Shown here: positions 2,915-44,600 of the stretch, in pieces | Position numbering within the stretch: position 1 is the stretch's first letter | Layout of the letters: every line of letters begins with the position of its first letter | Source of the DNA: an uncultured Rickettsiales bacterium | GTDB lineage: Bacteria > Myxococcota_A > UBA796 > UBA9615 | Direction: 5' to 3' | NCBI GenBank assembly: GCA_964416435.1 | Contig: CAYQEG010000008.1 | Span: 7,120 to 71,119 of the forward strand | Length of the DNA: 64,000 nucleotides | Translations under genes and position numbers: made by a program | Notes under the pieces: model-generated | What the model was told of the DNA's origin: nothing | The model's database searches: none | Seen by the model: only the letters and a program-made list of their open reading frames with translations

Positions 2915-2915
2915 G

Positions 2916-26889: not shown

Positions 26890-27312
26890 ATGCACATCAA
26901 CTCGACCAGTCCCCCGAGCGAAGAGCGCTCCGCCCGAGAGCGGATCGCAGCCGACCACCGCGAGGTGCTGGGCTTGCTCAAGCAGCTGGAGACCCACACC
27001 CAGCCGTCCGGGATTCGGGAGATCGCCTACGAGTTGACCACCCTGCTCGACCGCCACTTCAAGGACGAAGAAGGCGTGTACGGCGTATTCGCCCAGATCG
27101 AAGAGGCCCGGCCGGACCTGCAGGGGCAGGTCTCCCGCCTGCGGGATCAACACCGGGCGATCGAGGAGTTGATCGGCACCATCCGCTTCGACGACGACGC
27201 CCACGCGCTCAGCGATCGGGACCGCGTCGTGCAGATGATCCGTGAACACGAGGCGGCTGAGACCGAGCTGCTCACCGAGGCCATCTACGAAGACCTGGGC
27301 GTCGGCGACTGA
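26890..27312 (+). CDS. hemerythrin-like (HHE cation-binding) domain protein
   Basis: MHINSTSPP.. preceded by RBS GGGAG. Four H/E-containing helices (DHREVLGLL, LDRHFKDEE, LRDQHRAIEEL, REHEAAETELL) typical of the hemerythrin HHE domain. The ORF-track start at 26677 was rejected. Confidence 0.6.
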   Translation: MHINSTSPPSEERSARERIAADHREVLGLLKQLETHTQPSGIREIAYELTTLLDRHFKDEEGVYGVFAQIEEARPDLQGQVSRLRDQHRAIEELIGTIRFDDDAHALSDRDRVVQMIREHEAAETELLTEAIYEDLGVGD

Positions 27313-27388
27313 CCCAGCGAGGCTGTGTGAAATCGCACAGTCCGTGCCGGATCCCACACGAACGAACAGACCAGGACCGGAGGAGTTT

Positions 27389-29278
27389 GTGGAGCAAGCC
27401 ATCCACTCGCAGAAGACCAACCCGAGCGCGCCGGTGAAGCAGGTGCGGCAGCAGATCGTCGAGGTCGTCAGCGACTCCGGCGAGGGCGCTCAGACGGCTG
27501 GCCAGCTGTTCGGGAGCGTGTGCGCCAAGAGCGGCGCGGGCGTCTGGACCGTCGAGATCATCCCCGCCGAGATCGAGCCCCCGGCCCGGTCCCGCGCCGG
27601 GGCCAGCGGGATCCGCATCCGGTTCGGCACCGAAGAGATCACCAACATGGGTGACACCGCCGACCTGGTCGTCGCGTTCAACGAGCAGGTGCTCTACAGC
27701 CGGATCGATCAGGGCGCCCTGCGCGAGGGCACGATCCTGGTGCTCGACCGGGTCTGGGCGTCGCACGCGGACGAGCAGATTCGCAGCGCCTACGCCGCCG
27801 CGGTCGAAGACTTCCGGTCCCGGGGGTACGACATCCGCGAGCTGCCCCTCGAGGAGGAGGTGCTCAAGCACGTCGACAACCCGCGTCGCGGCAAGAACAC
27901 CTGGGTCGTCGGCATGATGGCCGCCTGGTACTCGATGGACATCCAGCCGTTCCTCGACGAGGTGCAGCTGCTGTTCGAGCGCAAGCGCAAGGGGCCCAAG
28001 GTCGTCGAGTCCAACCACCGGCTGCTGCGCGCCGGCTACCAGTGGGGGCTGGACAACCTGCCGGACCGGATGAGCGTGCCGCTCGTCCCCAGCGAGCAGG
28101 CCAAGGTCGTCATGAACGGCAACACCGCGGTCGCCCTGGGCTGCATGGCCGCCGGGATCGAGCTCTGCTCGATGTACCCCATCACCCCGGCCACCTCGGC
28201 GTCGCACTACCTGGCCTCGGTCTTCGACAAGGCGGGCGGGTTCGTGCACCAGGCGGAAGACGAGATCGCGGCGGTCGGCTTCGCCATCGGCGCGTCGTAC
28301 GCCGGCAAGACGGCGGTCACGATCACGTCGGGCCCCGGCATGGCGCTGAAGACCGAGCTCATCGGCCTGGCGGTCATGGCGGAGATTCCGCTCGTCATCG
28401 TGGACGTCCAGCGCGGCGGACCGAGCACCGGCCTGCCGACGAAGGTCGAGCAGGGAGACCTGCTGCACGCCCTGTGGGGGCACCCGGGCGACGCGCCGAA
28501 GGTGGTCATGGCTCCCTCGACCATCGGGGAGTGCTTCCACTTCATGGTCACCGCGCGGAAGCTCGCCGAGACCTTCCGCACCCCGGTCATCGTGCTGACG
28601 GACGCCAACCTGGCGACCGGCCAGGCGCCCTTCCCCTACCCCGAGCTCTCCGAGGACTGGCTCAGCCCGCCGGTCGACCAGTCGCCCTGGGTGGTCGGCA
28701 CGCGACCGTACGAGTGGGACGCCGAGACCGGACTGTCGCCGCGCCCGATCCCCGGACAGCGGGGAGGCGAGTACGTGCTCACGGGCCTGGCTCACGACCA
28801 GGAGAGCCACATCGCCTACGAGTCGGCGATCAACCAGCACAGCAGCGAGATGCGCAGCCGCAAGATGGCGGCGCTCCGCTCGACGCTGCGCCCGCCTGAG
28901 GTGTTCGGCGACGCTGAAGGAGACCTCCTGGTGGTCGGCTGGGGGAGCACCCGCGGCGCCATCGAGGAGGCGGTCGAGACCTGCCGGGCCGAGGGCCTCG
29001 CGGTGTCGTCCACCCACCTGCGGTTCATCGCTCCGATGGAGCCGGGGCTGACCGAGATCTTCGCCGGCTTCGAGAACGTGATGACGGTCGAGATCAACTA
29101 CAGCGACGAGGGCAACAGCTTCATCGACGAGGAGGGGCGCAGACGGTCCCAGCTCGCGGTGGTGTTGCGCTCGGCAACCCTCAAGGACGTCGACAGCTGG
29201 TCCCGGGTCCCCGGCGCGCCGCTGCCCCCGATGATCATCGCCGAGGCCATCCGCGCCCGGCTGGGCGAGGTGAAGTGA
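27389..29278 (+). CDS. korA: 2-oxoacid:ferredoxin oxidoreductase alpha subunit (fused gamma-alpha, KorA-like)
   Basis: GTG start with GGAGGAG RBS. N-terminal gamma-like VVSDSGEGAQTAGQLFG, then a TPP/transketolase-like alpha domain (GPGMALKTELIG..GGPSTGLPTKVEQGDL). Confidence 0.8.
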   Translation: MEQAIHSQKTNPSAPVKQVRQQIVEVVSDSGEGAQTAGQLFGSVCAKSGAGVWTVEIIPAEIEPPARSRAGASGIRIRFGTEEITNMGDTADLVVAFNEQVLYSRIDQGALREGTILVLDRVWASHADEQIRSAYAAAVEDFRSRGYDIRELPLEEEVLKHVDNPRRGKNTWVVGMMAAWYSMDIQPFLDEVQLLFERKRKGPKVVESNHRLLRAGYQWGLDNLPDRMSVPLVPSEQAKVVMNGNTAVALGCMAAGIELCSMYPITPATSASHYLASVFDKAGGFVHQAEDEIAAVGFAIGASYAGKTAVTITSGPGMALKTELIGLAVMAEIPLVIVDVQRGGPSTGLPTKVEQGDLLHALWGHPGDAPKVVMAPSTIGECFHFMVTARKLAETFRTPVIVLTDANLATGQAPFPYPELSEDWLSPPVDQSPWVVGTRPYEWDAETGLSPRPIPGQRGGEYVLTGLAHDQESHIAYESAINQHSSEMRSRKMAALRSTLRPPEVFGDAEGDLLVVGWGSTRGAIEEAVETCRAEGLAVSSTHLRFIAPMEPGLTEIFAGFENVMTVEINYSDEGNSFIDEEGRRRSQLAVVLRSATLKDVDSWSRVPGAPLPPMIIAEAIRARLGEVK

Positions 29279-30231
29279 TGTACGGAGTCAAGACCGACTG
29301 GTTCGACGCCCCTCCCGGCTGCCACTACGAGCTCGAGGACTACGAGGGGGCCACGGCCCGCTGGTGCCCGGGCTGCGGCGACCACGCGGTGCTCACCGCC
29401 ATCCAGCGCCTCTGCCGCGACGAGCAGCTGCCGCCCGAGAAGACCGTGATGGTGTCCGGAATCGGCTGCAGCAGCCGCTTCCCGCACTACATGAAGACGT
29501 TCGGGTTCCACGGCCTGCACGGCCGCGCGCTGCCCCTGGCCGAGGGGATCGTGTCCCGCCGGCCGGACCTGCACGTCTTCGTGTCCACCGGGGACGGCGA
29601 CTGCTGCTCCATCGGCGCAGGGCACTGGATCCACTCGATCCGATACAACATGAACATGACCGTGATGTTGTTCGACAACAACGTCTACGGCCTGACCAAG
29701 AACCAGACGTCGCCGACGTCGACGCGAGGCCAGGCGACCAACACGCACCCGCGCGGCGCGTGGCTCGATCCCATCAACCCGATCCAGACCACGCTCGGGG
29801 TGACGAACTGCTCGTTCGTCGCGCAGACCATCGACTGGAACCCGGCCCACCTGATGGCGACGCTCCAGGCGGCCCACCGCCACAAGGGCATGTCGTTCGT
29901 CCGCATCCTGCAGCGGTGCCCGCACTACACCGACGGGATCTTCGACTTCGCTCGGAACGACCCGAGCAACCTGCTGTTCATGGCCCACGCCGACGGCATC
30001 GACCTGGAGGGTCCCGCGGGCAAGTTGTTCACCAACCGCGTCGAGCACGACCCCGCCGACATCCACAAGGCACGCGAGTACGCCTCGGGCGAGCACGGCC
30101 TGCCGATCGGCCTCTTCTATCGGAACCCGAACGCGCAGCGATACGACGAGTTCTGCACCGAGGGGCTCGCCACCCCGCGGGCGGACAAGGTCGCCGCGCT
30201 CCGCTCGGTACTCGACAGCTACCGGATCTGA
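29275..30231 (+). CDS. korB: 2-oxoacid:ferredoxin oxidoreductase beta subunit (TPP-binding, KorB-like)
   Basis: ATGA overlap with the alpha subunit. Zn/Cys motif WCPGCGDH. TPP-binding GDGD..IG..H..IRYNMN. Confidence 0.85.
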   Translation: MMYGVKTDWFDAPPGCHYELEDYEGATARWCPGCGDHAVLTAIQRLCRDEQLPPEKTVMVSGIGCSSRFPHYMKTFGFHGLHGRALPLAEGIVSRRPDLHVFVSTGDGDCCSIGAGHWIHSIRYNMNMTVMLFDNNVYGLTKNQTSPTSTRGQATNTHPRGAWLDPINPIQTTLGVTNCSFVAQTIDWNPAHLMATLQAAHRHKGMSFVRILQRCPHYTDGIFDFARNDPSNLLFMAHADGIDLEGPAGKLFTNRVEHDPADIHKAREYASGEHGLPIGLFYRNPNAQRYDEFCTEGLATPRADKVAALRSVLDSYRI

Positions 30232-30232
30232 C

Positions 30233-33200
30233 ATGCCCGACCCCGCGTCCACCGTCAGCACGCTGGTGCTCGGCGGCGCCGAAGCCCTCAGCCGCCTGGA
30301 AGAGGCCGTGTGCGGGCTGCCGCCCGTCGCGAGCCCGGCTCGGGCCGAAGGGCTCGCCGCCGCTGGCGCGCACGCGTCCAGCCTGGGCCGCACCCCCTGC
30401 GTCCTGCCGATCCCGACCGAGATCAACGCCACCTGCGTACACCACGCGCTGTCCGACACGCAGCCTCCCCGGGGCACCGCCTGCGCGTTCGCGCCGGGCG
30501 ACGGCCAGGAGGCCCTCGACCTGGCGATCGCCGCGCGGCTGGTCTCCGGGGTCATGGGCCGCCCCGTGCTCTGCCTGCACGGCGCCTACAGCCGGGAGAC
30601 GGCTCGCCTGACGCTGCCCCTGCCGGTCGGCTGGAGCGAGCGCCCCGAAGACGACGACGCCGAGCCGCTGGCTGCCGCCGCGGCCGAGACGGTCGCGGCC
30701 GCCACCGGCCGTTCTGTGACCACGGTGCGCCGCGCGGGGCCCGAAGGGGCTCCGTTCGCGATCGTCGGTGCGGGCGTCGCGGGCCGCGCCGCCGAGCGCC
30801 TCGCCGCCGCCATCCGCGACGCCGGTCAGCCGTGCTCCAGCGTCTCGGTGACGCTGGTCCGTCCGGCCCCCATCGACGCGCTGGGGGAAGCCCTCGCGGG
30901 GGCGAAGCACTCCGTCCTCCTCATCGACTTCGACGACGGCGACCTCCTGCAGCTCGCGGCCCTGCGCGAAGCGGCCCCCGACGCCGCCTCCACCTCCGTC
31001 ACGGTGCCGGCGACGGCGCCCGTCGTCGGGCTGCTCGCCGCCGTCGGCGCGCACCTCCCCTTCGCCCCGCCGGTGGTCAAGGCCGAACCCGCGGAGACGA
31101 CCTTCCAGGTGACCGTCGTGCCCCACAGCGACTGGGCCATCGACGTGGCCCGCGGGATCGCCGGCCGCCTCATGCCACCCGGCCACTCGGTGGCGGTCTC
31201 GTCCCGCGGCCCTGGCGGCGGCGGCGCTGTGCTCATCGGGCCGGCCCACCAGTCGACCCGTCGGGTGCTCGTCGCAGCGGACGCCCGCAACCTCACCGGA
31301 GCGGTCGTCGACACCCTGCAAGACGACGACGTCGTCGTCGTGCACGGGCGGGGAGACGGTGACATCGACCGCATCGACGCCGCCGCCCGGAGCAAGCTCT
31401 CCGCTCGCGGCATCGCCGTCCGGATCGTGTACGCCGAGCCCGACGAGGGCGCGGCCTGGAGCGCCGGCCGGCTGATCGACGCCGCCGCCGCGGCCGCCGC
31501 GGACGCGGACCACGACGCCCTCCAGGAGGTCGCTGCGGCGGCCCTGGCCGGCGAAGACGAGACCCCCGAAGTGGACTTCCGATCCGCTCCGGGCGGCCCC
31601 GCCGGACCGACGACCGAGCCGGCCCTGGAGCACTCGCCGGGCTGGCTCCGCCAGTTCCACCTCGGCCGCGCGGGCCGCCGCCCTCCCGGCCCGCCGCTCG
31701 CGCCCGCGGCCGTCGGCGCCCTGGCCCGATCCGAGGCCCGGCGCTGGCCAGCCGTGCTGACCCGGGACGACGGCGTCCTGGCCGTCGGCACGCTCGCTGA
31801 CGCCGTCGCCTCGGCGCTCCCCCGAGCGGACGTACACCAGCTCGCTCGGGTGGAGCACCAGCTCCGCGCGCAGTTGAAGGAGAACGACGCCACCGTCGCC
31901 AACCTGCGCGAGCTGGCCGGCCAGGCGGCGCCCGCGGCCTGGCTCGAGGGCGACGGGCTGGAGGCCATCCCGGCCGACGCCCGCGCCGTCTGCCTGCATG
32001 ACGCGGTCGCCTTGGAGCTGGCCATCGAGGTTCTCCAGGAGCGCGCCGCCGAGGCCCGAGCACGCCTGGACGACCGCCTCGGCGCCCTCCGCGAGCGGCT
32101 GGCCGACCTGCTGGACCTCGACCGGATGCGCTCGAGCGCCGGGCGATCCGCCGACGCGCTCGGGAGCGCCCTGGGCGGCATGCCCCTCGTCGACCCCAGC
32201 AAGCTCGCCGCGACGCTCCCCGAACCGGAGCCGTCGAGCCTGCTCCCGGAGCTGCGCCGGCGACGCCTGGAGGGCGTGGCGGAGGTGCTGGACGCCTTCT
32301 CGCCGTCCGCGTCGCTGCCCCCGTCGACCCTGGTCGTGCCCCGCGACTCCGGGGTGGAGCTCCCCCCCACGCCCGGACACCTCGTCACCCACGAGATGCC
32401 GCTACAGGCCGCCCTCGGCCTGTTCGACGGCTTCGCCAACGTGCTCGCGGACGTCGTGCGGGCCGCCCGGACCGCCGAGCTCGAGCTCGACGACGCCTGG
32501 CGCGCCGACGTGCACGGCCCCGCGCTGGAAGATCTCGACTGGGAGGGGTTCACCCCGGACGAGCTCGCCGCCCTCCCCCAGATCGTCGTCGCCGTACCGG
32601 CGTCGCACGTCCGGGGGACCGGCGCGGCCGCCCTGCAGGGGGTGCTGCGCTCGGGTCGCCCGATCCGCGTGCTCGTGGTCGACGACGGCCTGGACTCGCC
32701 CGACGAGTACCACGCGCGCCCCGCCTGGCAGGCGATCGCGCACCGCGAGGCGTTCGTGGTCGGCGGCTCGGCCGCCCGGCCCGACCGCTGGGTCGAAGGG
32801 GTCTCCCGAGCCGCCGGCTCGGTCCGCCCCGCCCTGCTCGAGTTCTGGCTGCCCGACCCCGGTCCGAGCGACTGGCGGGAGCTGAGGGCCGCCGCTGCGG
32901 TGGCCGGTCGCACCTGCCCGGACCTCGTCTACGATCCCGACGGTGGCGCCGACCAGGCCGACCGCCTGGACGCCAGCGGCAACGCAGCCCCGGGTCAGGC
33001 CTGGCCGTCCTTCGAGGTCGCGGTCGCCGAGGGCGACCCCATCCAGGTCCCGCTGACCCACGCCGACGCGCTGTCGCTCGACCCGCGCTGGCGCGACTCC
33101 TTCCGCCTGCTCGATCCCGAGGACGAGGCGGCCGACCAGCTGCCCATCGACGCCTGGATCGACCAGCTCGATCCGTCCTCCCCGCAGCCCTGGCTGCCCT

Positions 33201-33871
33201 ACCTGTCGGTGGTCCACGCCGGCGCGATCCGCCGCGCAGTGCCGACCCGCGAGCTGGCCATGGCCTGCGCCGACCGGCTGCGCGGCTGGCACGCCGTGCA
33301 GGAGGCGGCGGGCTTCGACAACGCCTGGGCCCACCGGGCCGCCGAGGCCGCCTTCGAGCAGGCCAACGTGGCCGCCGCGACCGAGATCGCCGCGCTCCGG
33401 GCGGAGCACGTCTCGGAGCTGGAGCAGGTGCGCGCCACCGCCGCCCGGGAGGCCCTGTCCCGGGTCGCCCAGGCCCTGCTCGACGCCGGCTCGGGAGCGC
33501 TCGTGATCGGGGGTGGCGGCGCCGCACCCGAACCGATCGACGCCCCCGACAACGGCGCCCCGGAGCCGATCGCGGCCGTCGCCCCCCCCGCCGAGGAGCC
33601 GGAGGAGGACGACGCCCCGATCGTCGAGGAGGCCTACATCGACACCGTGCTGTGCACCACCTGCAACGAGTGCACGAACATGAACGGCCGGATGTTCAAG
33701 TACGACGGGAACAAGCAGGCGTTCATCGCGGACATCGAGGCGGGCACGTTCGCCGAGCTGGTGAAGGCGGCCGAGCTCTGCCCCGCCGCCTGCATCCACC
33801 CGGGGCCACCCCGCTCCGGCGACGGGACCGTGACGGACGACCTCGTCGCCCGCGCGGCCGCGTTCAACTAG
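30233..33871 (+). CDS. giant (1212 aa) Ala-rich protein with C-terminal 4Fe-4S ferredoxin-like domain, possibly PFOR-related
   Basis: Starts 2 nt after korB. C-terminus CTTCNECTNMNG..AELCPAACIHPG is a ferredoxin-type Cys cluster. Remainder has no confident domain match. Confidence 0.55.
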   Translation: MPDPASTVSTLVLGGAEALSRLEEAVCGLPPVASPARAEGLAAAGAHASSLGRTPCVLPIPTEINATCVHHALSDTQPPRGTACAFAPGDGQEALDLAIAARLVSGVMGRPVLCLHGAYSRETARLTLPLPVGWSERPEDDDAEPLAAAAAETVAAATGRSVTTVRRAGPEGAPFAIVGAGVAGRAAERLAAAIRDAGQPCSSVSVTLVRPAPIDALGEALAGAKHSVLLIDFDDGDLLQLAALREAAPDAASTSVTVPATAPVVGLLAAVGAHLPFAPPVVKAEPAETTFQVTVVPHSDWAIDVARGIAGRLMPPGHSVAVSSRGPGGGGAVLIGPAHQSTRRVLVAADARNLTGAVVDTLQDDDVVVVHGRGDGDIDRIDAAARSKLSARGIAVRIVYAEPDEGAAWSAGRLIDAAAAAAADADHDALQEVAAAALAGEDETPEVDFRSAPGGPAGPTTEPALEHSPGWLRQFHLGRAGRRPPGPPLAPAAVGALARSEARRWPAVLTRDDGVLAVGTLADAVASALPRADVHQLARVEHQLRAQLKENDATVANLRELAGQAAPAAWLEGDGLEAIPADARAVCLHDAVALELAIEVLQERAAEARARLDDRLGALRERLADLLDLDRMRSSAGRSADALGSALGGMPLVDPSKLAATLPEPEPSSLLPELRRRRLEGVAEVLDAFSPSASLPPSTLVVPRDSGVELPPTPGHLVTHEMPLQAALGLFDGFANVLADVVRAARTAELELDDAWRADVHGPALEDLDWEGFTPDELAALPQIVVAVPASHVRGTGAAALQGVLRSGRPIRVLVVDDGLDSPDEYHARPAWQAIAHREAFVVGGSAARPDRWVEGVSRAAGSVRPALLEFWLPDPGPSDWRELRAAAAVAGRTCPDLVYDPDGGADQADRLDASGNAAPGQAWPSFEVAVAEGDPIQVPLTHADALSLDPRWRDSFRLLDPEDEAADQLPIDAWIDQLDPSSPQPWLPYLSVVHAGAIRRAVPTRELAMACADRLRGWHAVQEAAGFDNAWAHRAAEAAFEQANVAAATEIAALRAEHVSELEQVRATAAREALSRVAQALLDAGSGALVIGGGGAAPEPIDAPDNGAPEPIAAVAPPAEEPEEDDAPIVEEAYIDTVLCTTCNECTNMNGRMFKYDGNKQAFIADIEAGTFAELVKAAELCPAACIHPGPPRSGDGTVTDDLVARAAAFN

Positions 33872-33880
33872 GAGCGCAGC

Positions 33881-34735
33881 GTGGAAGCGGTCGCGACTGC
33901 GGTCGGCATCATGACGGGCCTCGGCCTGTTCTTCGCCACCGTGCTCGCGGTCGCCTACCGGTTCTTGAGGGTGGAGGAGGACCCCCGCCTCGAGCAGGTC
34001 ACCGACATGCTGCCCGGCACCAACTGCGGCGCCTGCGGTGAGCCGGGCTGCGGAGCGTTCGCCAAGGCGCTGATCCTGAGCAAGGTCGGCCCCGCCGAGT
34101 GCACGGTCTCCAGCGCCGCCGACCGGACGGACATCGCCGAGGTGCTCGGCGTCGACGTCGGGGAGGCCGTCACCCGGGTCGCGAGGCTCAAGTGCGCGGG
34201 CGCCGAAGGGCTGGTCGGGAAGCTGGCCTCCTACCAGGGGCGGGGCTCCTGCCGAGCAGCGGCGGTCGTGGACGGAGGCGGTCGCGCCTGCCCCTGGGGC
34301 TGCCTGGGGCTCGGGGACTGCGAGGAGTCCTGCGACTTCGACGCGATCGCGATGGGCGCCGACGGGCTGCCCCACGTCTCGATCTCCGCCTGCGTCGCCT
34401 GCAACGACTGCGTCGACGTCTGTCCGCTGGACCTGTTCGTGCTCGCCCCGCTGGAGCACAAGCTGTTCGTCCAGTGCAACTCCCCCCTGGCCGGGGACGA
34501 GGCCCGCGCGCTCTGCGCCGTCGCGTGTGACGCCTGCGGCCGGTGCGCCGCCGACGCCCCCGCGCAGACCGTGACCATGCAGGGCGGGCTGCCGGTCATC
34601 GACTTCAGCACCGACTTCGAGCCCGGCCCCGAAGCCACCTTCCGTTGTCCCACCAGCGCCATCGTCTGGCTGGAGGGAGCCCAGTTCGAGGCGCCCGAGG
34701 AGGACTGGGAGTTCGAGGGCCGCCGCCGTGCCTGA
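33881..34735 (+). CDS. rnfB: Rnf electron transport complex subunit B
   Basis: N-terminal TM helix, GTNCGACGEPGCGAFA cluster motif, then two 4Fe-4S ferredoxin motifs (CVACNDCVDVCP, CDACGRC). Confidence 0.8.
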   Translation: MEAVATAVGIMTGLGLFFATVLAVAYRFLRVEEDPRLEQVTDMLPGTNCGACGEPGCGAFAKALILSKVGPAECTVSSAADRTDIAEVLGVDVGEAVTRVARLKCAGAEGLVGKLASYQGRGSCRAAAVVDGGGRACPWGCLGLGDCEESCDFDAIAMGADGLPHVSISACVACNDCVDVCPLDLFVLAPLEHKLFVQCNSPLAGDEARALCAVACDACGRCAADAPAQTVTMQGGLPVIDFSTDFEPGPEATFRCPTSAIVWLEGAQFEAPEEDWEFEGRRRA

Positions 34736-37700
34736 TGGAGACCGCCATGCATAAGTGGTTCGAGCTGCTACGTGGCGGCCCCAACGCGCCCGACCCCGAG
34801 CACCCCGGGACCGAGGCGGAGCGGTCGACGTCGGCCGCGATCCGCCAACTGGAGCGGCGAGCCGGCGTCGACGTGGTCGAGCAGGGCGCCGCCTCGGAGC
34901 GCCTCTCCATCGCCCTCGGCCGCACCCTCGCGGGCGACCGGGCCGCCGCCGTCGTCGCCCCCGGGGCGCTGCCCGAGCTGCACGGCGCCCTGCGCGCCGC
35001 CACCGAGCGCCTCGCGCCGGTGCTCGTACACGCGGTGCGCACCGCCGGCACCAGCTGGGGCTCCGGCCCCGACGCGGTGCTCGGCACCGGCGGCTTCGTC
35101 GCCGCCTCCCGGTCCGCCGCGCACGCGGTCAACCTGACCCTGTTCGCCCGCGCCCTCGCCGAGCGGGCGCTGGTGCCGGCCGTGCTCCTGCACGAGCAGA
35201 TGCCCAAGCCCGAGCCGGTCGTCGAGCCGGCCGACGCGACGCTCCGCGAGCTCCTCGGAGCCGCCGACGGCGACCTCGCCAGCCCGACCGAAGCCCAGCG
35301 GGCGCTGTTCGGCGCCGACCGTCGCCGGCTCGTCCGGTGGTTCGACCCGGACCACCCGGCCGCCGTCGGTGGCGGACGGGACGGCGTCGCCGCGGCGGCC
35401 GCCGAGCTGGGACGACACCTGTTCGTGGCCGACTCCGTCGACGAGATCGCGGCGCAGGTCGCGGCCGAGCAGCTGAAGCTGACCGGACGATCCATCGCCG
35501 CCCTGGACACCTGGGGCCTCGACGGCGCCGACGTCGTGGTCGTCGGGTGGGGCGAGCCCGCCGCGATCAGCGAGATGGTGGCCGAACGACTGCGAGGCGA
35601 ACGCGGACCGAAGGTCGGCGTGATCTCGCTGACCTTCCTGCGCCCGTTCCCGGCCGCCGAGCTCGCTCGGCTGCTCGCCGGCAAGCGCGCGATCGCTGTC
35701 CTCGAACCCACCGCAGACCCCCTGGCGGGGCTGCCTCCGCTGGCCCGGGACGTCGCGGCTGCCGCGCCGGCCGTCGCCGACCGGTTGATGCCGGTCTCCT
35801 GCTCCCTGGCGACCCACGCCAAGCAGGTCGCCGCGATGATGCGCGTGCTCATGGGCAAGACTCGGCCCCCGCGCCTCGCCCTGGACGTCCCCGCCCCCGC
35901 GGCGCAGACCGGCTTCCCCCGCCGCGACGCGCTGCTCGGCGGCCTGCGGGCGCAGTACGACCGGCTCGACGCCGAGCTGCTGCCCGCGCCCGAGACCCCG
36001 GCCCTGGCCCTGCCGAGCCAGGTGCCCCCGGTCCTCGCCCGGATCGCCGGAGACCGCCGCGCCCCGGACAGCCTGCCCCGCTTCTGGGGTGAGGTCGTGC
36101 AGCCGACCCTCGGCGGCAGCCCGCCATCGCCCGACCCCGTCGCCGCCGCAGGCGTGGTGCCGGCCGGAGCGACCGCGCTCCAGCCCGGTCCCGACCACGC
36201 CGACGCCCCGCTCCCCGCGCTCGACTCCGCCGCCTGCACCGCCTGCGGCGACTGCTGGACGGCGTGCCCTCAGGGGGCGATCGGCGCGGTGCTCCCCGGC
36301 GCCCAGGCCCTGCTCACCGAGGCCAGCCACCTCGCCGGCACGGCCGGCAAGCCGGCCGACTCGCTGCGCCGGGCGTACAAGCACGCCGCGGGGCGGATGA
36401 TCTCCCTCTCCGGCGACGGCGCCGTCGACGCCGACGTCCTCGAGCGGACCTGGGCCTGGCTCAGCGGCAAGGTGTCGATCCCCGACGACGACTACGACGC
36501 CTGGAAGGACGCCTGGAGCGCGACCGCCGCGCAGGTCACCGCGCTCGCCCCGGCCGTCGCGACGGCGGTGCCCGGCGAAGCGACCGAGCTGCTGCTCTGG
36601 TCGGTCGACGCGGCGGCGTGCGACGGCTGCGGCGCCTGCGTGAGCAGCTGCGATGAAGAGGCCCTCACCGCTCCCGAGCGCACCCCCGACCTCGTGGCCG
36701 CCGCGAGCGCTCGGCGCGCCGCCTGGGACGCGCTGCCCGACACCCCCGGCGAGGCGCTCAGCCGCGCCAGCGACGGGATCGGCTCGATGGCCGCGACCCT
36801 GTTGGCCCGCGGCCCCGCCGACGCCCAGCTCCCCGGTGACCCGGCCGGCGCGCCCGCCGGCGTGCGGCTCGGCCTGCGACTGCTGACCGCGGTGACCGAG
36901 GCCCACGGCCAGCGCAGGCTCGCCGAGCGGCTCGGACAGCTGGGCGCCGCCGGCGCGGCGGTCGAGGACCGCATCCGGACGGTCGTCACCAACAGCGTGG
37001 TCGGCGCCGACGCCGCCAAGCTGGCCGAGGCGGTCGCCCGCTCCGGCCAGGTGCGCGTCCCCCTGGGCGAGCTCGTCGGCCACCTCGAAGAGCTCGACGT
37101 ACCGCTCGCGCTGGACCGCAAGGACCTGCTCTCCGCCGCGCGCACGTCCACCGCCGTCTCGAACGCCGTCGAGCGGCTGAAGACCGGCGCCGACGGCCTG
37201 GGCCGCGCCCGCTTCGCGGTGCTCGCGACCCGCTCGGGGCCGGCCGCCCCGCTGCTGCGCCACCCCCTGCACCCCTGGTTCGCCCCCGCCGCGGTCGTCG
37301 ACGAGTCGGACGCCGCGGCCACCGCCCTGGGGCTCGCCCGGGCGCTCACGGCGGAGCACACCGCCCTGGTGCGGCTCGCCCGTCGGGCCGAGCTGCTCGC
37401 CCGGCCCCCGTCGGACCTCCCGGCCCGGCTGGACGCGATCGCTCGCCTGGGCTGGTCGGACCTGGAGCCGGCCGACCGGGCGGACTGCCCCCCGCTGCTG
37501 CTCATCGCCACCCGCGACGGCCACCTGCCAGCCCTGCTGGACCTGCAGGCGAGCGACCTGCCGATCGTCGTCGTGGTGCTCGACCACGAAGCCGGCGGCC
37601 CCGGCTCGGCGGTGGTGCTGGAGGCGCTGACCCGCACCGGCGCGTCGGTGGTCTCCGCCTCCGTGGGCGACCCGGATCACCTCGCTGCGTCGCTGACCGC

Positions 37701-38076
37701 CGCGCTGAGCCTCGGCGCCCCCGCCGTCCTGCACGTGCATGCCCCGGACGCGGAGCCGTCGGAGCTGCGCGACGCGGCCCGGGCGGCGGTGGAGGCGGGC
37801 GAGCACGTGCTCCTCCGCTACACCCCGGACGACGGGCTCGACCTGTCCGGCAACCCCGACCCGGCGACCGCGCTGCGGGGTCCGCTCGTCGATCGGCTCC
37901 AGGACCGGCTCGTCGCCGACGCCGCGGCCGAGCAGGCCGCCGCCGTGCAGGCGAAGGAGGCCGAGCACGCCGCCGCCCTCGCGGACGCCGCCGCCGGCGC
38001 CCGCGCCGAGCACGTGCGGGTGCTCACCGATCGCCTGATGGAGTTGGCCGGCTACGGCGCGGCGGGAGGCGGCTGA
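34735..38076 (+). CDS. giant (1113 aa) PFOR-like / ferredoxin-domain protein inserted between rnfB and rnfC
   Basis: ATGA overlap with rnfB. Region ..VISLTFLRPFPAAELARLLAGKRAIAVLE resembles PFOR domain II. CTACGDCWTACP and CDGCGACVSSC ferredoxin-like motifs. Ala-rich. High GC3. Confidence 0.55.
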   Translation: METAMHKWFELLRGGPNAPDPEHPGTEAERSTSAAIRQLERRAGVDVVEQGAASERLSIALGRTLAGDRAAAVVAPGALPELHGALRAATERLAPVLVHAVRTAGTSWGSGPDAVLGTGGFVAASRSAAHAVNLTLFARALAERALVPAVLLHEQMPKPEPVVEPADATLRELLGAADGDLASPTEAQRALFGADRRRLVRWFDPDHPAAVGGGRDGVAAAAAELGRHLFVADSVDEIAAQVAAEQLKLTGRSIAALDTWGLDGADVVVVGWGEPAAISEMVAERLRGERGPKVGVISLTFLRPFPAAELARLLAGKRAIAVLEPTADPLAGLPPLARDVAAAAPAVADRLMPVSCSLATHAKQVAAMMRVLMGKTRPPRLALDVPAPAAQTGFPRRDALLGGLRAQYDRLDAELLPAPETPALALPSQVPPVLARIAGDRRAPDSLPRFWGEVVQPTLGGSPPSPDPVAAAGVVPAGATALQPGPDHADAPLPALDSAACTACGDCWTACPQGAIGAVLPGAQALLTEASHLAGTAGKPADSLRRAYKHAAGRMISLSGDGAVDADVLERTWAWLSGKVSIPDDDYDAWKDAWSATAAQVTALAPAVATAVPGEATELLLWSVDAAACDGCGACVSSCDEEALTAPERTPDLVAAASARRAAWDALPDTPGEALSRASDGIGSMAATLLARGPADAQLPGDPAGAPAGVRLGLRLLTAVTEAHGQRRLAERLGQLGAAGAAVEDRIRTVVTNSVVGADAAKLAEAVARSGQVRVPLGELVGHLEELDVPLALDRKDLLSAARTSTAVSNAVERLKTGADGLGRARFAVLATRSGPAAPLLRHPLHPWFAPAAVVDESDAAATALGLARALTAEHTALVRLARRAELLARPPSDLPARLDAIARLGWSDLEPADRADCPPLLLIATRDGHLPALLDLQASDLPIVVVVLDHEAGGPGSAVVLEALTRTGASVVSASVGDPDHLAASLTAALSLGAPAVLHVHAPDAEPSELRDAARAAVEAGEHVLLRYTPDDGLDLSGNPDPATALRGPLVDRLQDRLVADAAAEQAAAVQAKEAEHAAALADAAAGARAEHVRVLTDRLMELAGYGAAGGG

Positions 38077-39435
38077 GTGCTGAACCTGCTCCGACGCGGC
38101 CGGACCTTCCGGCACGGCATCCACCCGCCCGAGCACAAGGAGCGGACGGACGCGCTCGCGATCGAGCAGGCCCCCTTCGTGGACGAGTACGTGCTGCCGC
38201 TGTCGCAGCACATCGGCGCCCCCAGCAAGGCGGTCGTGGCCGTCGGCGACGCGGTCGAGCGGGGCCAGAAGCTGGCCGACCCCGGCGGGTTCGTGTCGGT
38301 CGCCCTGCACGCCCCGGTCGCCGGCAAGGTGACCGCGATCGAGCTGCGGCTGCACCCCAACGGGCGCATGGTCCCGTCGATCGTGCTCCAGCGGGACCCC
38401 TGGTCGAGCCAGCAGCTCGCCGGCGAGCCCGTCGACCCGGCGAGCCTCGACGTCAAGGAGGCGCTGTCCCACATCCAGAACGCCGGCATGGTCGGCCTGG
38501 GCGGCGCCGCGTTCCCCAGCCACGTCAAGCTGGCGGTGCCCGAGGGGAAGCGGATCGACGACGTGGTCATCAACGGCTGCGAGTGCGAGCCGTACCTGAC
38601 GTGCGACCACCGGGTCATGGTCGAGCAGGCCGACGCGGTGGTGCGGGGCACGGAGATCCTGCGGCACCTCCTGGGCGGCCAGCGCTCCTGGATCGGCGTC
38701 GAGCTCAACAAGCCCGACGCGATCGCCGCGCTCGAGGCGGCGGCGAGCCCTCCGGTGGAGGTCGTCGGGCTCGAGGTCAAGTACCCCCAGGGCGCCGAGA
38801 AGATGCTGATGTACGCCATCTTCGGGCAGGAGGTGCCCGCCGGCGGGCTGCCCCTGGACCTGGGGATGCTGACCAACAACGTCGGCACCACCGCCGCCAT
38901 CGCGGACCTCTTCGACCGCGGCCTCCCCCTCATCGAGCGCGTCGTGACGGTCACCGGGGTCGGCGTCGACCGCCCGCGCAACCTCAAGGTGCCGATCGGC
39001 ACCCCGGTGCGGACCATCCTGGAGCACTGCGGGCTGAGCCCCCGGGCCGACCGCGTGATCCTGGGGGGCCCGATGATGGGCGCCCCCCAGAAGAGCCTGG
39101 ACGTGCCGGTGCTCAAGGGCACCTCGGGCCTGCTCTGCCTGGACGGCGCGCCGGAGCCGGCCGAGTTCCCGTGCATCCGCTGCGGCCGCTGCGTCGAGGC
39201 TTGCCCCATGTTCCTGAACCCGGCCCGGCTGGCCCGCCTGGTCCGGGCCGAGCGCCCCGGCGAGGCGGCCGACATCCACCTGATGAGCTGCTTCGAGTGC
39301 GCCTCGTGCAGCTATGTCTGCCCCTCCGGCATCCCGCTGGTCCAGTGGATGCGGGTCGGCAAGCAGACCCTGCGCGCCGAGCAGGCGAAGGCCCGCGCCG
39401 AGGCGGCGAAGGCCGAAGCGGAGGCCGGATCGTGA
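38077..39435 (+). CDS. rnfC: Rnf complex subunit C
   Basis: GTG start right after the upstream stop, with GGGAGGCGG RBS. GGAAFPSHVK, a CIRCGRCVEACP / CFECASCSYVCP 4Fe-4S pair. Confidence 0.85.
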   Translation: MLNLLRRGRTFRHGIHPPEHKERTDALAIEQAPFVDEYVLPLSQHIGAPSKAVVAVGDAVERGQKLADPGGFVSVALHAPVAGKVTAIELRLHPNGRMVPSIVLQRDPWSSQQLAGEPVDPASLDVKEALSHIQNAGMVGLGGAAFPSHVKLAVPEGKRIDDVVINGCECEPYLTCDHRVMVEQADAVVRGTEILRHLLGGQRSWIGVELNKPDAIAALEAAASPPVEVVGLEVKYPQGAEKMLMYAIFGQEVPAGGLPLDLGMLTNNVGTTAAIADLFDRGLPLIERVVTVTGVGVDRPRNLKVPIGTPVRTILEHCGLSPRADRVILGGPMMGAPQKSLDVPVLKGTSGLLCLDGAPEPAEFPCIRCGRCVEACPMFLNPARLARLVRAERPGEAADIHLMSCFECASCSYVCPSGIPLVQWMRVGKQTLRAEQAKARAEAAKAEAEAGS

Positions 39436-40448
39436 GCGACCGCCCCGCCGGCCTGGTGATCTCGAGCTCGCCGTACGTCAAGGACGCGACGACGACGCCC
39501 ACGATCATGCGGGACGTCACGCTGGCGGCCTGCGTCGTGCTGGCCGCGGCGACCTGGCACTTCGGGGTCGGCTCGCTGCTCGTGGCGGGCGCCTGCGTGC
39601 TCGGCGCCGTCGTCACCGAGTGGGCGTTCACCCGCGACAAGGCCCCCTCCCCCATCCGGGACTGGTCCGCCGCGCTGACCGGGCTGCTGCTCGGGCTGAC
39701 GCTGCCTCCGGCGATGCCCCTGTGGATGGCGTTCCTGGGCGGGGTGGCGGGCATCGGCCTCGGCAAGCTGATCTGGGGCGGGCTGGGGCAGAACCTGTTC
39801 AACCCGGCGCTCGTCGGGCGAGCGTTCCTGCAGGCGGCGTTCCCGACGTCGATCACCACCTGGAGCGTCACCGCGGCCGAGGCCGGCTCCCACACCCAGA
39901 TCCCGAACACCGTCTTCGCGGCCCCCCTGATGCACGTCGAGCTGGACGCGATGAGCGGGGCGACGCCGCTGGGGCTGGCGAAGTTCCAGGACCAGTCGAC
40001 CGAGGTGATGGACCTGCTGACCGGGGTCTCGGCCGGGTCGCTGGGCGAGACCAACGCGATCGTCCTGATCCTGTGCGGCGTCTTCCTGTGGTGGCGGCGC
40101 GCGTTCGACTGGCGGCTGCCGGTCTCCACGCTGGCGACGGTGGCGGTGCTGGCGGCGGCGCTCCACGCGTTCCGGCCCGACGACTGCCCGGGGGCCGCCT
40201 TCTACCTGCTGTCCGGCGGCCTGATGCTGGGCGCGATCTTCATGGTGACGGACCCGGTGACCACGCCGACGACGAAGAAGGGGGCCTGGCTCTTCGGCAT
40301 CGGCGTCGGCTTCCTCGTCGTCCTCATCCGCGCCTACGGGGGCCTCCCCGAGGGGGTGATGTACGCGATCCTGCTGATGAACGCGGTCACCCCCCACATC
40401 GAGAAGTACACGCAGCCCCGACCGTTCGGAGGTTCCCGTGGCGGCTGA
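39432..40448 (+). CDS. rnfD: Rnf complex subunit D (NqrB-like membrane subunit)
   Basis: GTGA overlap with rnfC. Multiple TM helices. Conserved ..GATPLG.. and FMVTDPVTTP motifs. Confidence 0.85.
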   Translation: MSDRPAGLVISSSPYVKDATTTPTIMRDVTLAACVVLAAATWHFGVGSLLVAGACVLGAVVTEWAFTRDKAPSPIRDWSAALTGLLLGLTLPPAMPLWMAFLGGVAGIGLGKLIWGGLGQNLFNPALVGRAFLQAAFPTSITTWSVTAAEAGSHTQIPNTVFAAPLMHVELDAMSGATPLGLAKFQDQSTEVMDLLTGVSAGSLGETNAIVLILCGVFLWWRRAFDWRLPVSTLATVAVLAAALHAFRPDDCPGAAFYLLSGGLMLGAIFMVTDPVTTPTTKKGAWLFGIGVGFLVVLIRAYGGLPEGVMYAILLMNAVTPHIEKYTQPRPFGGSRGG

Positions 40449-41055
40449 AGTCAGCAGCTTCAAGATGCTCCTGACGCTGGGCCTCGCCGGGATGATCTCC
40501 GGGGGGGTGCTCGTGGGGATCTACGAGGCGACGGCGCCCCGCATCGAGCGGAACCGGGCCGAGGCGCTGGAGCGCGCGATCTACGAAGTGCTGCCCGGCG
40601 CGGTCTCCAAGGAGGCGTGGGTGGCCGACGGGGACGGCCTGAAGCGGCCCGAGGTCGAGCCCAAGCCGGGCGCCGACGCGGTGTACGCGGGGTACGACGC
40701 CGACGGCAACCGCCTCGGCTTCGCCATCCCCGCCGCCGGCGCCGGGTTCCAGGACACGATCGCGCTGATCTACGGGATCGACCCGGCGCGGCGCAGGATC
40801 GTCGGCATGCGGGTGCTGGAGAGCCGCGAGACGCCGGGCCTGGGGGACAAGATCATCAAGGACGACCACTTCGTGGCCGAGTTCGACGACCTCGCGGTCG
40901 ACCCGGAGATCGTCGCGCTGCCCAAGGGCACGACCACCGGCGAGCACGAGATCGACGCGATCTCGGGCGCGACGATCAGCAGCGTCGCGATCTGCAACAT
41001 CCTCAACGAGAGCAACTCGCGCTGGCTGGGCAGGTTGCCCACCGGGGAGCAGTAA
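40438..41055 (+). CDS. rnfG: Rnf complex subunit G (FMN-binding)
   Basis: N-terminal TM anchor, then FMN-binding region ..ISGATISS... Confidence 0.8.
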   Translation: MAAEVSSFKMLLTLGLAGMISGGVLVGIYEATAPRIERNRAEALERAIYEVLPGAVSKEAWVADGDGLKRPEVEPKPGADAVYAGYDADGNRLGFAIPAAGAGFQDTIALIYGIDPARRRIVGMRVLESRETPGLGDKIIKDDHFVAEFDDLAVDPEIVALPKGTTTGEHEIDAISGATISSVAICNILNESNSRWLGRLPTGEQ

Positions 41056-41056
41056 G

Positions 41057-41686
41057 TTGGCGACGCAGGCCGAAGCCTACGACGAGCTGGTCAAGGGACT
41101 CTGGAAGGAGAACCCGGTCTTCGTGCAGCTGCTGGGGCTCTGCCCGGCGCTCGCGGTCACCAACTCGGCGATCAACGCCATCGCGATGAGCGCGGCGACG
41201 ACGTTCGTGCTCGTCGGCAGCTCGATCCTGGTCAGCTCCGTCCGCAACCTGATCCCGAAGCAGGTCCGCATCACGACGTTCATCATCGTCATCGCGACCT
41301 TCGTGACGGTGGCCGACTTCACGCTGATGGCGCTGCTCCCGGACGTGCACAAGGAGCTCGGGGCGTTCATCGCGCTGATCGTCGCCAACTGCCTGATCCT
41401 CGGCCGCCAGGAAGCGTTCGCGTCGCGCAACACGGTGGGCAAGGCGTTCGCCGACGCGGCGGGCATGTCGATCGGCTTCTCGGTCGCCCTCATCATGCTG
41501 GGCTCGATCCGCGAGATCCTCGGCAGCGGCAGCCTCCTGGGCGTCTCCCTGTTCGGCCCGAACTTCGAGCCCTGGGTGATCATGATCCTGCCGCCGGGCG
41601 GCTTCCTGACCCTCGGCCTGCTGCTCGCCCTGTTCGCCTGGTGGGGCAAGCGCAAGCGGCGCGCGGAAGCCGGGGGGGCGGCCTGA
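41057..41686 (+). CDS. rnfE: Rnf complex subunit E
   Basis: ..GLWKENPVFVQLLGLCPALAVTNSAINA.. is the hallmark RnfE/NqrD N-terminus. TTG start per ORF track. Confidence 0.85.
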   Translation: MATQAEAYDELVKGLWKENPVFVQLLGLCPALAVTNSAINAIAMSAATTFVLVGSSILVSSVRNLIPKQVRITTFIIVIATFVTVADFTLMALLPDVHKELGAFIALIVANCLILGRQEAFASRNTVGKAFADAAGMSIGFSVALIMLGSIREILGSGSLLGVSLFGPNFEPWVIMILPPGGFLTLGLLLALFAWWGKRKRRAEAGGAA

Positions 41687-42276
41687 TGTTCGACTTCGGA
41701 GACCTCGTCTGGATCTTCGTCGCCGCCGCGGTGGTGAACAACTTCACGCTCGCGTGGTTCCTGGGCCTGTGCCCGTTCCTGGGCGTCAGCGGCCGGCTCG
41801 ACACGGCGCTGCGGATGGGGCTGGCCAACATCTTCGTGATGCTCGTGACCGCGGTCTGCGCGTGGTTCCTGAACACGTTCGTGCTGGTCCACGCGCCGTA
41901 CCTGCGGCTGATCGCGTTCATCGTGGTCATCGCGTCGACCGTGCAGTTCGTGGAGATGGCGATCAAGAAGCTCTCGCCCGCGCTGTTCGAGGCGCTGGGC
42001 ATCTTCCTGCCGCTGATCACGACCAACTGCGCGATCCTCGGCCTGGCGCTGTTCCAGACCAACCGCGGCTACGGGTTCGTCGAGTCGATGTCGTTCGCCC
42101 TGGGCGCCGGGGTCGGCCTGACGCTGGCGCTGGTGCTGATGGCCGGCGTGCGGCAGGAGAATGACCTGCGCGACATTCCGGACGTGCTCCAGGGCGCTGC
42201 GATGAGCTTCCTGATCGCCGGCATCCTCAGCATGGCGTTCATGGGCTTCGCGGGCCTGTTCAGCGGAACGGCGTAG
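41686..42276 (+). CDS. rnfA: Rnf complex subunit A
   Basis: Internal ATG (MFDFGDLVWIFVAAAVVNNFTLAWFLGLCPFLGVS) overlapping the rnfE stop (TGATG), RnfA/NqrE signature. The ORF-track N-terminal extension was rejected. Confidence 0.85.
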   Translation: MFDFGDLVWIFVAAAVVNNFTLAWFLGLCPFLGVSGRLDTALRMGLANIFVMLVTAVCAWFLNTFVLVHAPYLRLIAFIVVIASTVQFVEMAIKKLSPALFEALGIFLPLITTNCAILGLALFQTNRGYGFVESMSFALGAGVGLTLALVLMAGVRQENDLRDIPDVLQGAAMSFLIAGILSMAFMGFAGLFSGTA

Positions 42277-42283
42277 CCGGCCG

Positions 42284-42466
42284 ATGACGCACCTGCTCGC
42301 GATCGTAGGCCTCGGGCTGGCGTGCGCCGGCTGGTACCTGGTGCAGCGCTGGACGGGCGCGCTGGACACCTACAACGGCAACGACGAGGCCGCCGGCTGC
42401 GGGACCTGCACGGTCGACGACTGCGGACAGCGCCCAGACCCCCTCGATCCGTCCCCAAACCTCTGA
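42284..42466 (+). CDS. small membrane protein with Cys-rich tail (60 aa)
   Basis: TM helix LLAIVGLGLACAGWYLV, then GCGTCTVDDC. High GC3. 8 nt downstream of rnfA. Confidence 0.45.
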   Translation: MTHLLAIVGLGLACAGWYLVQRWTGALDTYNGNDEAAGCGTCTVDDCGQRPDPLDPSPNL

Positions 42467-42476
42467 TCCACTAGGG

Positions 42477-42503
42477 GAAACCCCCAATCACCGGGGTTTC
42501 TTT
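42477..42503 (+). terminator. rho-independent terminator-like hairpin after rnf operon
   Basis: GAAACCCC-(8 nt loop)-GGGGTTTC perfect inverted repeat followed by TTTG. Confidence 0.4.
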
Positions 42504-42563
42504 GACCCGATCCGCGACCCGTCCCATGATCACAAGGAGGGATAGAGGAGGGGCGCGATTGGA

Positions 42564-42806
42564 GTGCGCCCGATGGTTCGTACCGCTGTGCTGGGCTTGA
42601 TGATCTCGCTCCTCCCGGTCTTCGCCGGGTTGGCCTGGCCGGAACCGGCCGACGCGCTGGACCTCGCCGCCTCCGACGCCACCCAGGACTGGAACGCCCC
42701 CGCCTACGACGGCCTCTGGATCACCCTGTCCCGGGCCGAAGACCCCAACGTCTCGATCAACGACCTGCTCGTCGCCGCCGATCGGCCCCTGCGCTACGCC
42801 CGATGA
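42564..42806 (+). CDS. small secreted protein (80 aa)
   Basis: AGGAGGG..GAGGAGGGG RBS upstream. Signal-like AVLGLMISLLPVFAGLAWP. Confidence 0.35.
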   Translation: MRPMVRTAVLGLMISLLPVFAGLAWPEPADALDLAASDATQDWNAPAYDGLWITLSRAEDPNVSINDLLVAADRPLRYAR

Positions 42807-43111
42807 AGCTCGGCACCACCGGCTGGCTCATCGGCTTCCTCGGGCTGGCGCTCCTGGGGGCGACCCCTCTCGCCTTCGAGATCGCCATGGCGGAGCCGGA
42901 CTGCGCCCCGGTGGAGCAGCGGATCCTGCCGACGGAGACCGATCGCGCCGCGCGGCTGTCCGACGCGATCCTCCGCAGCTCCGTCGACGCCGACTGCGAG
43001 CTCGCGCGCCGCGGCATGAGCCGCGCCGACTACATCGAGTTGATGGACGACATCGCGGCGGATCGGCGGCTCGCGACCGCCTACGCGGCCGCTCGCCGCG
43101 TCTCTCGCTGA
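42803..43111 (+). CDS. small secreted protein (102 aa, 2 Cys)
   Basis: ATGA overlap with the previous small gene. Signal peptide MKLGTTGWLIGFLGLALLGATPLAFE. Confidence 0.4.
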   Translation: MKLGTTGWLIGFLGLALLGATPLAFEIAMAEPDCAPVEQRILPTETDRAARLSDAILRSSVDADCELARRGMSRADYIELMDDIAADRRLATAYAAARRVSR

Positions 43112-44571: not shown

Positions 44572-44600
44572 CGACAGCTCCTCGGTGGGCGGGCGCCGGC

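Follow-up and report, generated by a model that had tools for sequence, protein, structure and literature searches.

Why does an operon for the Rnf complex also carry a two-subunit 2-oxoacid oxidoreductase and two giant proteins, one of them encoded between rnfB and rnfC? This question is raised by a 64,000-nt stretch of DNA from an uncultured Rickettsiales bacterium (assembly GCA_964416435.1, contig CAYQEG010000008.1, positions 7,120 to 71,119), which was analysed as a whole and is called the window below. Within it, 11 consecutive plus-strand genes fill positions 27389-42466: korA, korB, giant1, rnfB, giant2, rnfC, rnfD, rnfG, rnfE, rnfA and a gene for a 60-aa Cys-rich membrane protein. The explanation that best accounts for the whole, with a probability of roughly 60%, is an Rnf complex with a dedicated KorAB substrate module, in which relays derived from pyruvate:ferredoxin oxidoreductase (PFOR) would open a 2-oxoglutarate/NAD(H) route coupled to an ion gradient. 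Rnf operons of this type, with PFOR-derived pseudoenzyme subunits and linked korAB genes, are widespread and essentially undescribed.

Gene content and conservation of the operon

The run starts with korA (27389-29278; GTG start, GGAGGA Shine-Dalgarno sequence) and korB (29275-30231), followed by giant1 (30233-33871; 1212 aa), rnfB (33881-34735; 284 aa), giant2 (34735-38076; 1113 aa), rnfC (38077-39435), rnfD (39432-40448), rnfG (40438-41055), rnfE (41057-41686), rnfA (41686-42276), the ATG of which overlaps the rnfE stop codon, and the gene of the 60-aa protein (42284-42466). In this order, the junction distances are -4, +1, +9, -1, 0, -4, -11, +1, -1 and +7 nt, and no sigma-70-like promoter was found on the plus strand within the run by a consensus scan. 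A terminator-like hairpin was identified by folding energy at the operon end (42474-42503, plus strand), with -19.5 kcal/mol, z = -2.4, 5 of 200 shuffles equally good and a short T tail; it was not called by a consensus terminator scan. A first-pass annotation had described this tightly packed run as closed by a terminator hairpin: its coordinates, lengths and packing (gaps of -11 to +9 nt) proved correct, and the folding agrees with the hairpin. All gene assignments were confirmed with Pfam and NCBIfam except that of the 60-aa protein, which has no match.

KorA has the domain order III-I-II, scores 513 bits against NCBIfam TIGR03710 (cutoff 482.75) and matches Pfam POR and POR_N. KorB matches TPP_enzyme_C and PFO_beta_C and has an intact thiamine pyrophosphate (TPP) motif (STGDGDC...FDNNVYGLT), and its cysteines C31, C34, C65 and C215 would, judged by their spacing, be the ligands of one [4Fe-4S] cluster. 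Based on these domains, the TPP motif and the cysteines, KorAB is predicted to be a two-subunit 2-oxoacid:ferredoxin oxidoreductase (OFOR). Its closeness to 2-oxoglutarate enzymes rests on the best solved relative, the 2-oxoglutarate:ferredoxin oxidoreductase (OGOR) of Magnetococcus, which is the closest PDB structure to KorA (6n2n, E 3e-80). No Fer4 match was obtained for KorAB in the Pfam scan, i.e. it has no ferredoxin domain.

All six Rnf subunit families (RnfABCDGE) are encoded together according to Pfam. RnfB (FeS and Fer4) consists of an N-terminal membrane helix, an Fe-S domain and a polyferredoxin, and its residues 7-264 align with residues 7-263 of C. tetanomorphum RnfB (PDB 7zc6_B, E 1e-46); the helix and the Cys motifs are retained in all RnfB orthologues inspected. 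RnfC is the NADH/FMN-binding subunit with two [4Fe-4S] motifs (RnfC_N, Complex1_51K, SLBB, Fer4), and RnfD (NQR2_RnfD_RnfE, E 8e-104), RnfG (FMN_bind), RnfE (Rnf-Nqr, E 2e-61) and RnfA (Rnf-Nqr, E 6e-54) complete the set. The SGAT flavinylation motif in RnfD and RnfG is a defining Rnf trait, and the translations contain DAMSGATPLG (RnfD) and DAISGATISS (RnfG). The operon is thus predicted to encode an Rnf complex RnfABCDGE. The 60-aa protein has one membrane helix (W-Y/F-LVQ-R/Q-W motif) and a C-terminal CxxC..C cluster, and gave no Pfam match at E <= 10 and no NCBIfam match at E <= 0.1. With homologues directly 3' of rnfA in at least 12 loci, it is a conserved member of this Rnf subtype.

The order korA-korB-giant1-rnfB-giant2-rnfC(DGEA) is also found in about 20 other loci from genomes and metagenomes, with protein identities of 28-57% (28-48% for giant1). 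Because loci this distant share the order, the arrangement is far beyond chance. The genome records with this layout are labelled 'Proteobacteria', 'Deltaproteobacteria' and gammaproteobacterial clam symbiont, and dozens of metagenome loci are added to these. On a 111-kb contig of a close relative (L100), independent gene calls gave hemerythrin-korA-korB-1216 aa-rnfB-1106 aa-rnfCDGEA-50 aa, and giant proteins identical over their full length, or 57-72% identical, are present in public data. A PFOR-like Fe-S protein between RnfB and RnfC had been regarded as atypical for Rnf operons, with a check of related genomes proposed. It does depart from the order rnfBCDGEA reported for Caldithrix (PMC5317091), but this layout is shared by other genomes, being conserved in several labelled lineages and dozens of metagenome loci.

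Neighbours around giant1 were counted in 80 metagenome loci. The korB gene lies immediately upstream of giant1 in 36 of 42 loci and rnfB is the next gene after giant1 in 33 of 55, while giant2 follows rnfB in 27 of 27 and rnfC follows giant2 in 14 of 15. In two loci (L027, L028), rnfB-giant2 is divergent from korAB-giant1 and the halves are still adjacent; the linkage between them survives rearrangement. The endosymbionts of the tubeworms Lamellibrachia and Escarpia have korAB-giant1-rnfB-giant2 followed by sucC, and an Endoriftia contig (L019) holds giant homologues. In a Sedimenticola metagenome-assembled genome (MAG; L004), a FAD_binding_2 flavoprotein and a NuoF-like protein (Complex1_51K, SLBB and NADH_4Fe-4S) are encoded before korA, and giant2 is followed by rnfC alone (148-3030 and 14310-15638 of that locus), which hints at a variant of the module using NADH without the membrane core. 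As a separate observation, a gene for a 23S rRNA intervening-sequence protein (PF05635) lies between giant1 and rnfB in a Lamellibrachia symbiont (L007, 8406-8786).

Two PFOR-like giants without catalytic motifs

The AlphaFold2 model of giant2 (pLDDT 83, pTM 0.81) matched the PFOR of M. thermoacetica in Foldseek (6ciq, E 5e-25) as well as oxalate oxidoreductase alpha (TMt 0.78), and the family profile matched M. thermoacetica PFOR 6cin with an E of 3e-86. Giant2 of the window is collinear with PFOR but has no domain III. Domain II is found at residues 265-346 (35527-35772, plus strand, as are all features of the giants; Pfam PFOR_II, E 2.6e-11), followed by two CxxCxxCxxxC motifs: C501-C511 (36235-36267), aligned with the PFOR domain V motif, and C629-C639 (36619-36651), aligned with intact relatives. 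All eight cysteines (C501/504/507/511 and C629/632/635/639) are invariant across 22 family members. The former TPP-diphosphate-binding domain, domain VI (37192-37854, based on alignment to intact relatives), is degenerate: ATR----DGHL...LDHEAGG stands where these relatives have GGDGAMYDIGFQN...DTQVYSNTGGQ. Only one Cys occurs after residue 639, and no TPP_enzyme_C match was obtained in the Pfam scan. A comparison of the giant2 family profile with KorB was uninformative (probability 2.5%).

Giant1, a weak paralogue of giant2, has Fer4_13 at residues 1136-1189 as its only Pfam match. Its AlphaFold2 model (pLDDT 69) matched M. thermoacetica PFOR best in Foldseek, with an E of 1e-18 over about 1100 columns, and its C-terminus matched D. 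africanus ferredoxin I (TMt 0.84). Domain V is absent and the C-terminal Fer4_13 is carried instead, a single-cluster ferredoxin domain (33638-33799 by alignment; C1141, C1144, C1147, C1183-P) which is homologous to the C-terminal ferredoxin of the intact single-giant PFORs described below and the four cysteines of which are invariant in the giant1 alignment. This domain follows a disordered linker rich in Ala, Pro and Glu and about 48 residues long (aa 1084-1131; 33482-33625) with the sequence GGGGAAPEPIDAPDNGAPEPIAAVAPPAEEPEEDD, for which the pLDDT is below 50 at model residues 1072-1119 (+12 gives the protein numbering). The N-terminal region (aa 1-460; 30233-31612), assigned by alignment to vestigial PFOR N-terminal domains, aligned only in the window, P0032 and L001 and is absent from the gammaproteobacterial orthologues of about 820 aa; within it, aa 153-226 weakly match OFOR alpha. 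The first-pass description of both giants as PFOR-like, ferredoxin-domain proteins is therefore borne out by the fold searches, Fer4_13 and the CxxCxxCxxxC motifs, with the addition that catalysis appears to be lost.

Two further observations concern the giant1 family. A rarity of giant1, based on word-indexed homologue searches that gave 6 and 9 proteins, was rejected, because exhaustive HMMER searches found 1583 representatives, 710 of them at E < 1e-30; despite these 710 representative clusters, annotation of the core family is limited to the ferredoxin domain. Stand-alone giant1-like genes of about 840-880 aa (L085, L092) lie beside DDE transposases and unrelated genes, away from korAB and rnf, and these neighbourhoods are uninformative on function.

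The reference point for catalysis is provided by rnf operons without korAB in Calditrichia, Nitrospiraceae and Hydrogenedentota MAGs (L010, L011, L013, L015), in which one gene for a giant of about 1650 aa separates rnfB from rnfC. This giant scores against POR_N (2.5e-44), POR (3e-30), PFOR_II, TPP_enzyme_C and a C-terminal Fer4_13, and it carries the canonical GGDGAMYDIGFQN...VVDTQVYSNTGGQ motif (GGDG...SNTGGQ) together with the proximal-cluster cysteines (GDGACxGCxEK and the Cys of SCQPEHG). By these motifs, the single giant is an intact PFOR.

Next, the catalytic columns of these intact PFORs were aligned with the giants of the window, L001, L004, L007 and L016, including tubeworm and clam symbionts. 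In giant2 of the window and the four orthologues, the GDG...SNTGG motif and the three alignable proximal-cluster cysteines are all replaced, and both domain V CxxCxxCxxxC motifs are kept. In giant1, the TPP motif and the three alignable proximal-cluster cysteines are likewise replaced and the C-terminal ferredoxin is kept. With GDG-x(25-30)-(S)N(T)GG as the criterion, all 4 complete giants from loci lacking korB have the TPP motif, against none of the 29 complete giant2 orthologues from loci with korB. Compared with a catalytic PFOR, the giants thus have the fold and domain order, and giant2 has the two domain V CxxCxxCxxxCP motifs, but they lack the TPP motif and the cysteines of the proximal cluster. 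Both giants are, with high confidence, catalytically dead PFOR-derived pseudoenzymes that keep Fe-S relay sites. Since the TPP motif and proximal-cluster cysteines are replaced, they would serve as relays or scaffolds and not as second oxidoreductases.

Proposed electron route between KorAB and RnfB

From the coupling of korAB to rnf, a dedicated ferredoxin-to-NAD electron route had been suggested earlier, and the conserved korAB-rnf linkage supports it. KorAB would be the only catalytically competent 2-oxoacid oxidoreductase of the operon. The giants are proposed as pseudoenzyme relays because they retain what KorAB lacks, an Fe-S relay, and it is fairly likely that they pass electrons between KorAB and RnfB, supplying the ferredoxin relay between the KorB cluster and the polyferredoxin RnfB. 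Giant1 and giant2 probably form a pseudo-heterodimer that imitates the PFOR homodimer, in which the clusters kept would be two [4Fe-4S] sites in giant2 and one on the flexibly tethered ferredoxin of giant1, the latter acting as a mobile arm. The net reaction would be 2-oxoglutarate + CoA + NAD+ <-> succinyl-CoA + CO2 + NADH, coupled to Na+/H+ movement via Rnf, and free ferredoxin would be needed little or not at all. As for its history, an intact PFOR with a C-terminal ferredoxin probably resided in an rnf operon and was duplicated, after which both copies would have lost TPP binding and the proximal cluster, with KorAB recruited as the catalyst. The single-giant operon is probably the ancestral state.

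A bolder and more tentative version is that KorAB, the two giants and Rnf form one membrane-bound supercomplex without free ferredoxin, an ion-translocating 2-oxoglutarate:NAD+ oxidoreductase; this is conceivable, with the odds somewhat against it. The giant1 ferredoxin arm would then swing between the KorB cluster, the giant2 clusters and RnfB, and in reverse, NADH and the membrane potential would drive the carboxylation of succinyl-CoA. Single-giant operons would represent the ancestral 2-oxoacid form of the same machine.

Several points weigh against a relay wired into Rnf. A helical insertion of about 110 residues, absent in PFOR, separates the two cluster motifs of giant2, and the cluster geometry is thus unsettled. 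The giant1 model is only moderately confident (a pTM of 0.48 besides the pLDDT of 69), and the structure models are monomers. Gene order with its conservation, the fold, the lost catalytic motifs, the retained Fe-S motifs and purifying selection are seen directly in the data, while contact between the proteins and the electron path are inferred. Giant1 is not followed by rnfB in 22 of 55 loci, and in the tubeworm symbiont loci there is no rnfC-A within 10 kb, so that the module need not be encoded with the Rnf core. Finally, the physiological direction, either energy-conserving 2-oxoglutarate oxidation or gradient-driven reductive carboxylation, is not readable from sequence.

Another possibility might be that the giants are large free electron carriers, i.e. 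oversized ferredoxins shuttling between KorAB and RnfB without a stable complex, in which case the operon would reflect co-regulation only. This would agree with the retained Fe-S motifs, with the separation of the module from rnfCDGEA in tubeworm symbionts and with the existence of stand-alone giant1-like genes. However, about 1000 residues of non-catalytic PFOR scaffold under purifying selection are hard to explain for a simple carrier. In comparison with L100, dN/dS is 0.40 for giant1 and 0.31 for giant2, against 0.07-0.22 for KorAB, RnfA, RnfB, RnfC, RnfD and RnfE; the giants are under purifying selection, relaxed relative to KorAB and these Rnf subunits. The strict adjacency of rnfB and giant2 (27/27) and the overlapping reading frames also speak against free carriers and suggest a stoichiometric assembly. 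Free carriers are for these reasons considered unlikely.

Less probable still is a mainly structural or protective role, in which the giants shield, stabilise or help to assemble the oxygen-sensitive clusters of KorAB and RnfB, with their own clusters being accessory. A hemerythrin gene recurs upstream of the operon and the module is found in sulfur-oxidising symbionts, both of which would fit such a role. On the other hand, the cluster-binding cysteines are invariant in distant members while most of the other sequence diverges, which points to a redox and not a purely structural function.

That the giants are active 2-oxoacid oxidoreductases, e.g. a PFOR as annotated in the tubeworm-symbiont orthologue, so that the operon would co-express two to three ferredoxin-reducing enzymes with Rnf, is very improbable. 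The PFOR fold with its collinear domains, the names PFOR or 'por' given to relatives by JGI and in the literature, and the active appearance of the single-giant relatives are outweighed by the replaced GDG...SNTGG motif and proximal-cluster cysteines in all five loci aligned, by the absent TPP_enzyme_C match and, for giant2, by the single Cys after residue 639 and, in the window, the missing domain III. The concern that the giant ORFs are high-GC artefacts or frameshifted shorter genes, natural at a window GC of about 72% with many long spurious ORFs on both strands, can be dismissed given a GC content at third codon positions of 0.94 (giant1) and 0.95 (giant2) in the called frames, similar to that of the neighbour genes, dN/dS below 0.41, full-length orthologues of 57-72% identity from independent gene calls, the confident giant2 fold and the 710 representative relatives.

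If true, the relay from KorAB through the giants to Rnf would explain how the very low-potential electrons of a ferredoxin-dependent 2-oxoglutarate synthase/oxidase are supplied or drained, namely by direct wiring to the Rnf pump; chemosynthetic tubeworm symbionts are among the organisms using such 2-oxoglutarate enzymes. It would add new accessory subunits and a new operon type to Rnf, and provide a clear case of evolution from enzyme to scaffold, from an intact PFOR via duplication to two pseudoenzymes, with catalysis taken over by KorAB. A further implication is a ferredoxin-independent module for NADH-driven CO2 fixation, which might be open to engineering.

Flanking regions, literature and known systems

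A gene for a 140-aa hemerythrin-domain protein (26890-27312, plus strand; Pfam PF01814, E 2.3e-11) ends 76 nt upstream of korA. As a homologue is found directly upstream of korA in eight other loci (L100, L001, L020, L026, L029, L036, L060, L088), the operon probably starts with this gene, one gene before korA. That the hemerythrin senses oxygen or iron, or takes part in Fe-S repair, is a conjecture. Between this gene and korA, an inverted repeat CTGTG-N8-CACAG is found at 27323-27340, with its arms conserved and its spacer altered in L100; it was unalignable in L001 and L020. The repeat may act as an operator or fold into a small stem-loop.

Directly upstream and divergent (21550-26623, minus strand) lie phage-tail-like or contractile-injection baseplate genes, i.e. 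gp25-like, a 1207-aa Baseplate_J and Tail_P2_I, and L100 has the same neighbours. Past the hairpin, two small plus-strand ORFs of 80 and 102 aa (42564-43111) have 70-74% identity to counterparts in L100 and L101 and no Pfam or NCBIfam match; a sigma-70-like site is located by them at 42502-42530. Further downstream (43303-47521, minus strand), multihaem c-type cytochromes are encoded, a set conserved in L100, one of which joins collagen-like repeats with cytochrome c7 and MtrC-like domains. At the left end of the window (positions 1-4000), the GC content reaches 0.75-0.81 and the GC skew is strongly negative. Scans of the whole stretch for Rfam families and tRNAs gave no matches.

Targeted literature searches (korAB with rnfBCDGEA, por-like with Rnf, inactive OFOR paralogues) returned no description of the operon except for a gene list in the supplement of PMC6315080, and the searched text of a 2025 RNF/NQR review makes no mention of 2-oxoglutarate or of such operons. 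In that supplement, Rubin-Blum et al. (2019) list the reductive tricarboxylic acid (rTCA) cycle cluster 2 ('rTCA cycle cluster 2') of the Escarpia laminata symbiont as gltA, ferredoxin, frdx*, nuoF*, korA, korB, por-like, rnfB, por, sucC and sucD, all of which are transcribed, and 'por' is taken as a functional PFOR. This is contradicted by the orthologues, the sequences of which do not have the TPP and proximal-cluster motifs. The second TCA cluster of the symbiont would therefore need a corrected annotation, its 'por' having none of the motifs that PFOR needs, which affects published rTCA reconstructions. According to PMC11636981 (2024), a 'PFOR-like' gene and the dimeric korAB of Endoriftia drop together under sulfide limitation, which would be consistent with a co-regulated module; this gene is plausibly a giant orthologue, given the giant homologues on the Endoriftia contig L019.

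The Escarpia cluster contains the same five-gene module as the window, orthologous to L002-L008 and L017. Unlike in the window, no rnfCDGEA follows it, and the authors drew no link to a whole Rnf operon. With canonical Rnf (C. tetanomorphum 7zc6, Acetobacterium woodii 9eri, Azotobacter vinelandii 8ahx), the window operon shares all six subunits, an RnfB aligned end to end and the SGAT motifs; it differs by the giant2 gene between rnfB and rnfC, by korAB and giant1 before rnfB and by the small Cys-rich protein after rnfA. This small protein resembles the maturation factor NqrM of Na+-NQR and FeoB-associated Cys-rich proteins in its helix, its Cys cluster and its position after the last structural gene, an analogy only, as no family model matches.

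The two-subunit enzymes of Magnetococcus marinus (6n2n) and Sulfolobus tokodaii (5b46/5b48) match KorAB in architecture, in their intact TPP motif and in having one cluster. According to PMC5020499, domain V is absent from two-subunit OFORs, which dock a free, external ferredoxin at the place where PFOR carries its own, whereas KorAB of the window is encoded with ferredoxin-domain pseudo-PFORs and Rnf. Single-chain PFORs (M. thermoacetica 6cin, D. africanus 1b0p) are like the giants in fold and domain order, and giant2 keeps their two-cluster motifs of domain V. Both giants differ from them in having neither the TPP-diphosphate motif nor the proximal [4Fe-4S] ligands, giant2 of the window in the missing domain III and the insertion of about 110 residues, and giant1 in its additional tethered ferredoxin.

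The korAB-less single-giant operons agree with the window operon in where the giant lies among the rnf genes, in their type of RnfB and in the small Cys protein encoded after rnfA. Homology of their single intact giant extends along the length of giant2 and, in giant1, covers domain VI through the C-terminal ferredoxin. These operons differ in having one giant instead of two, all catalytic motifs intact and no korAB.

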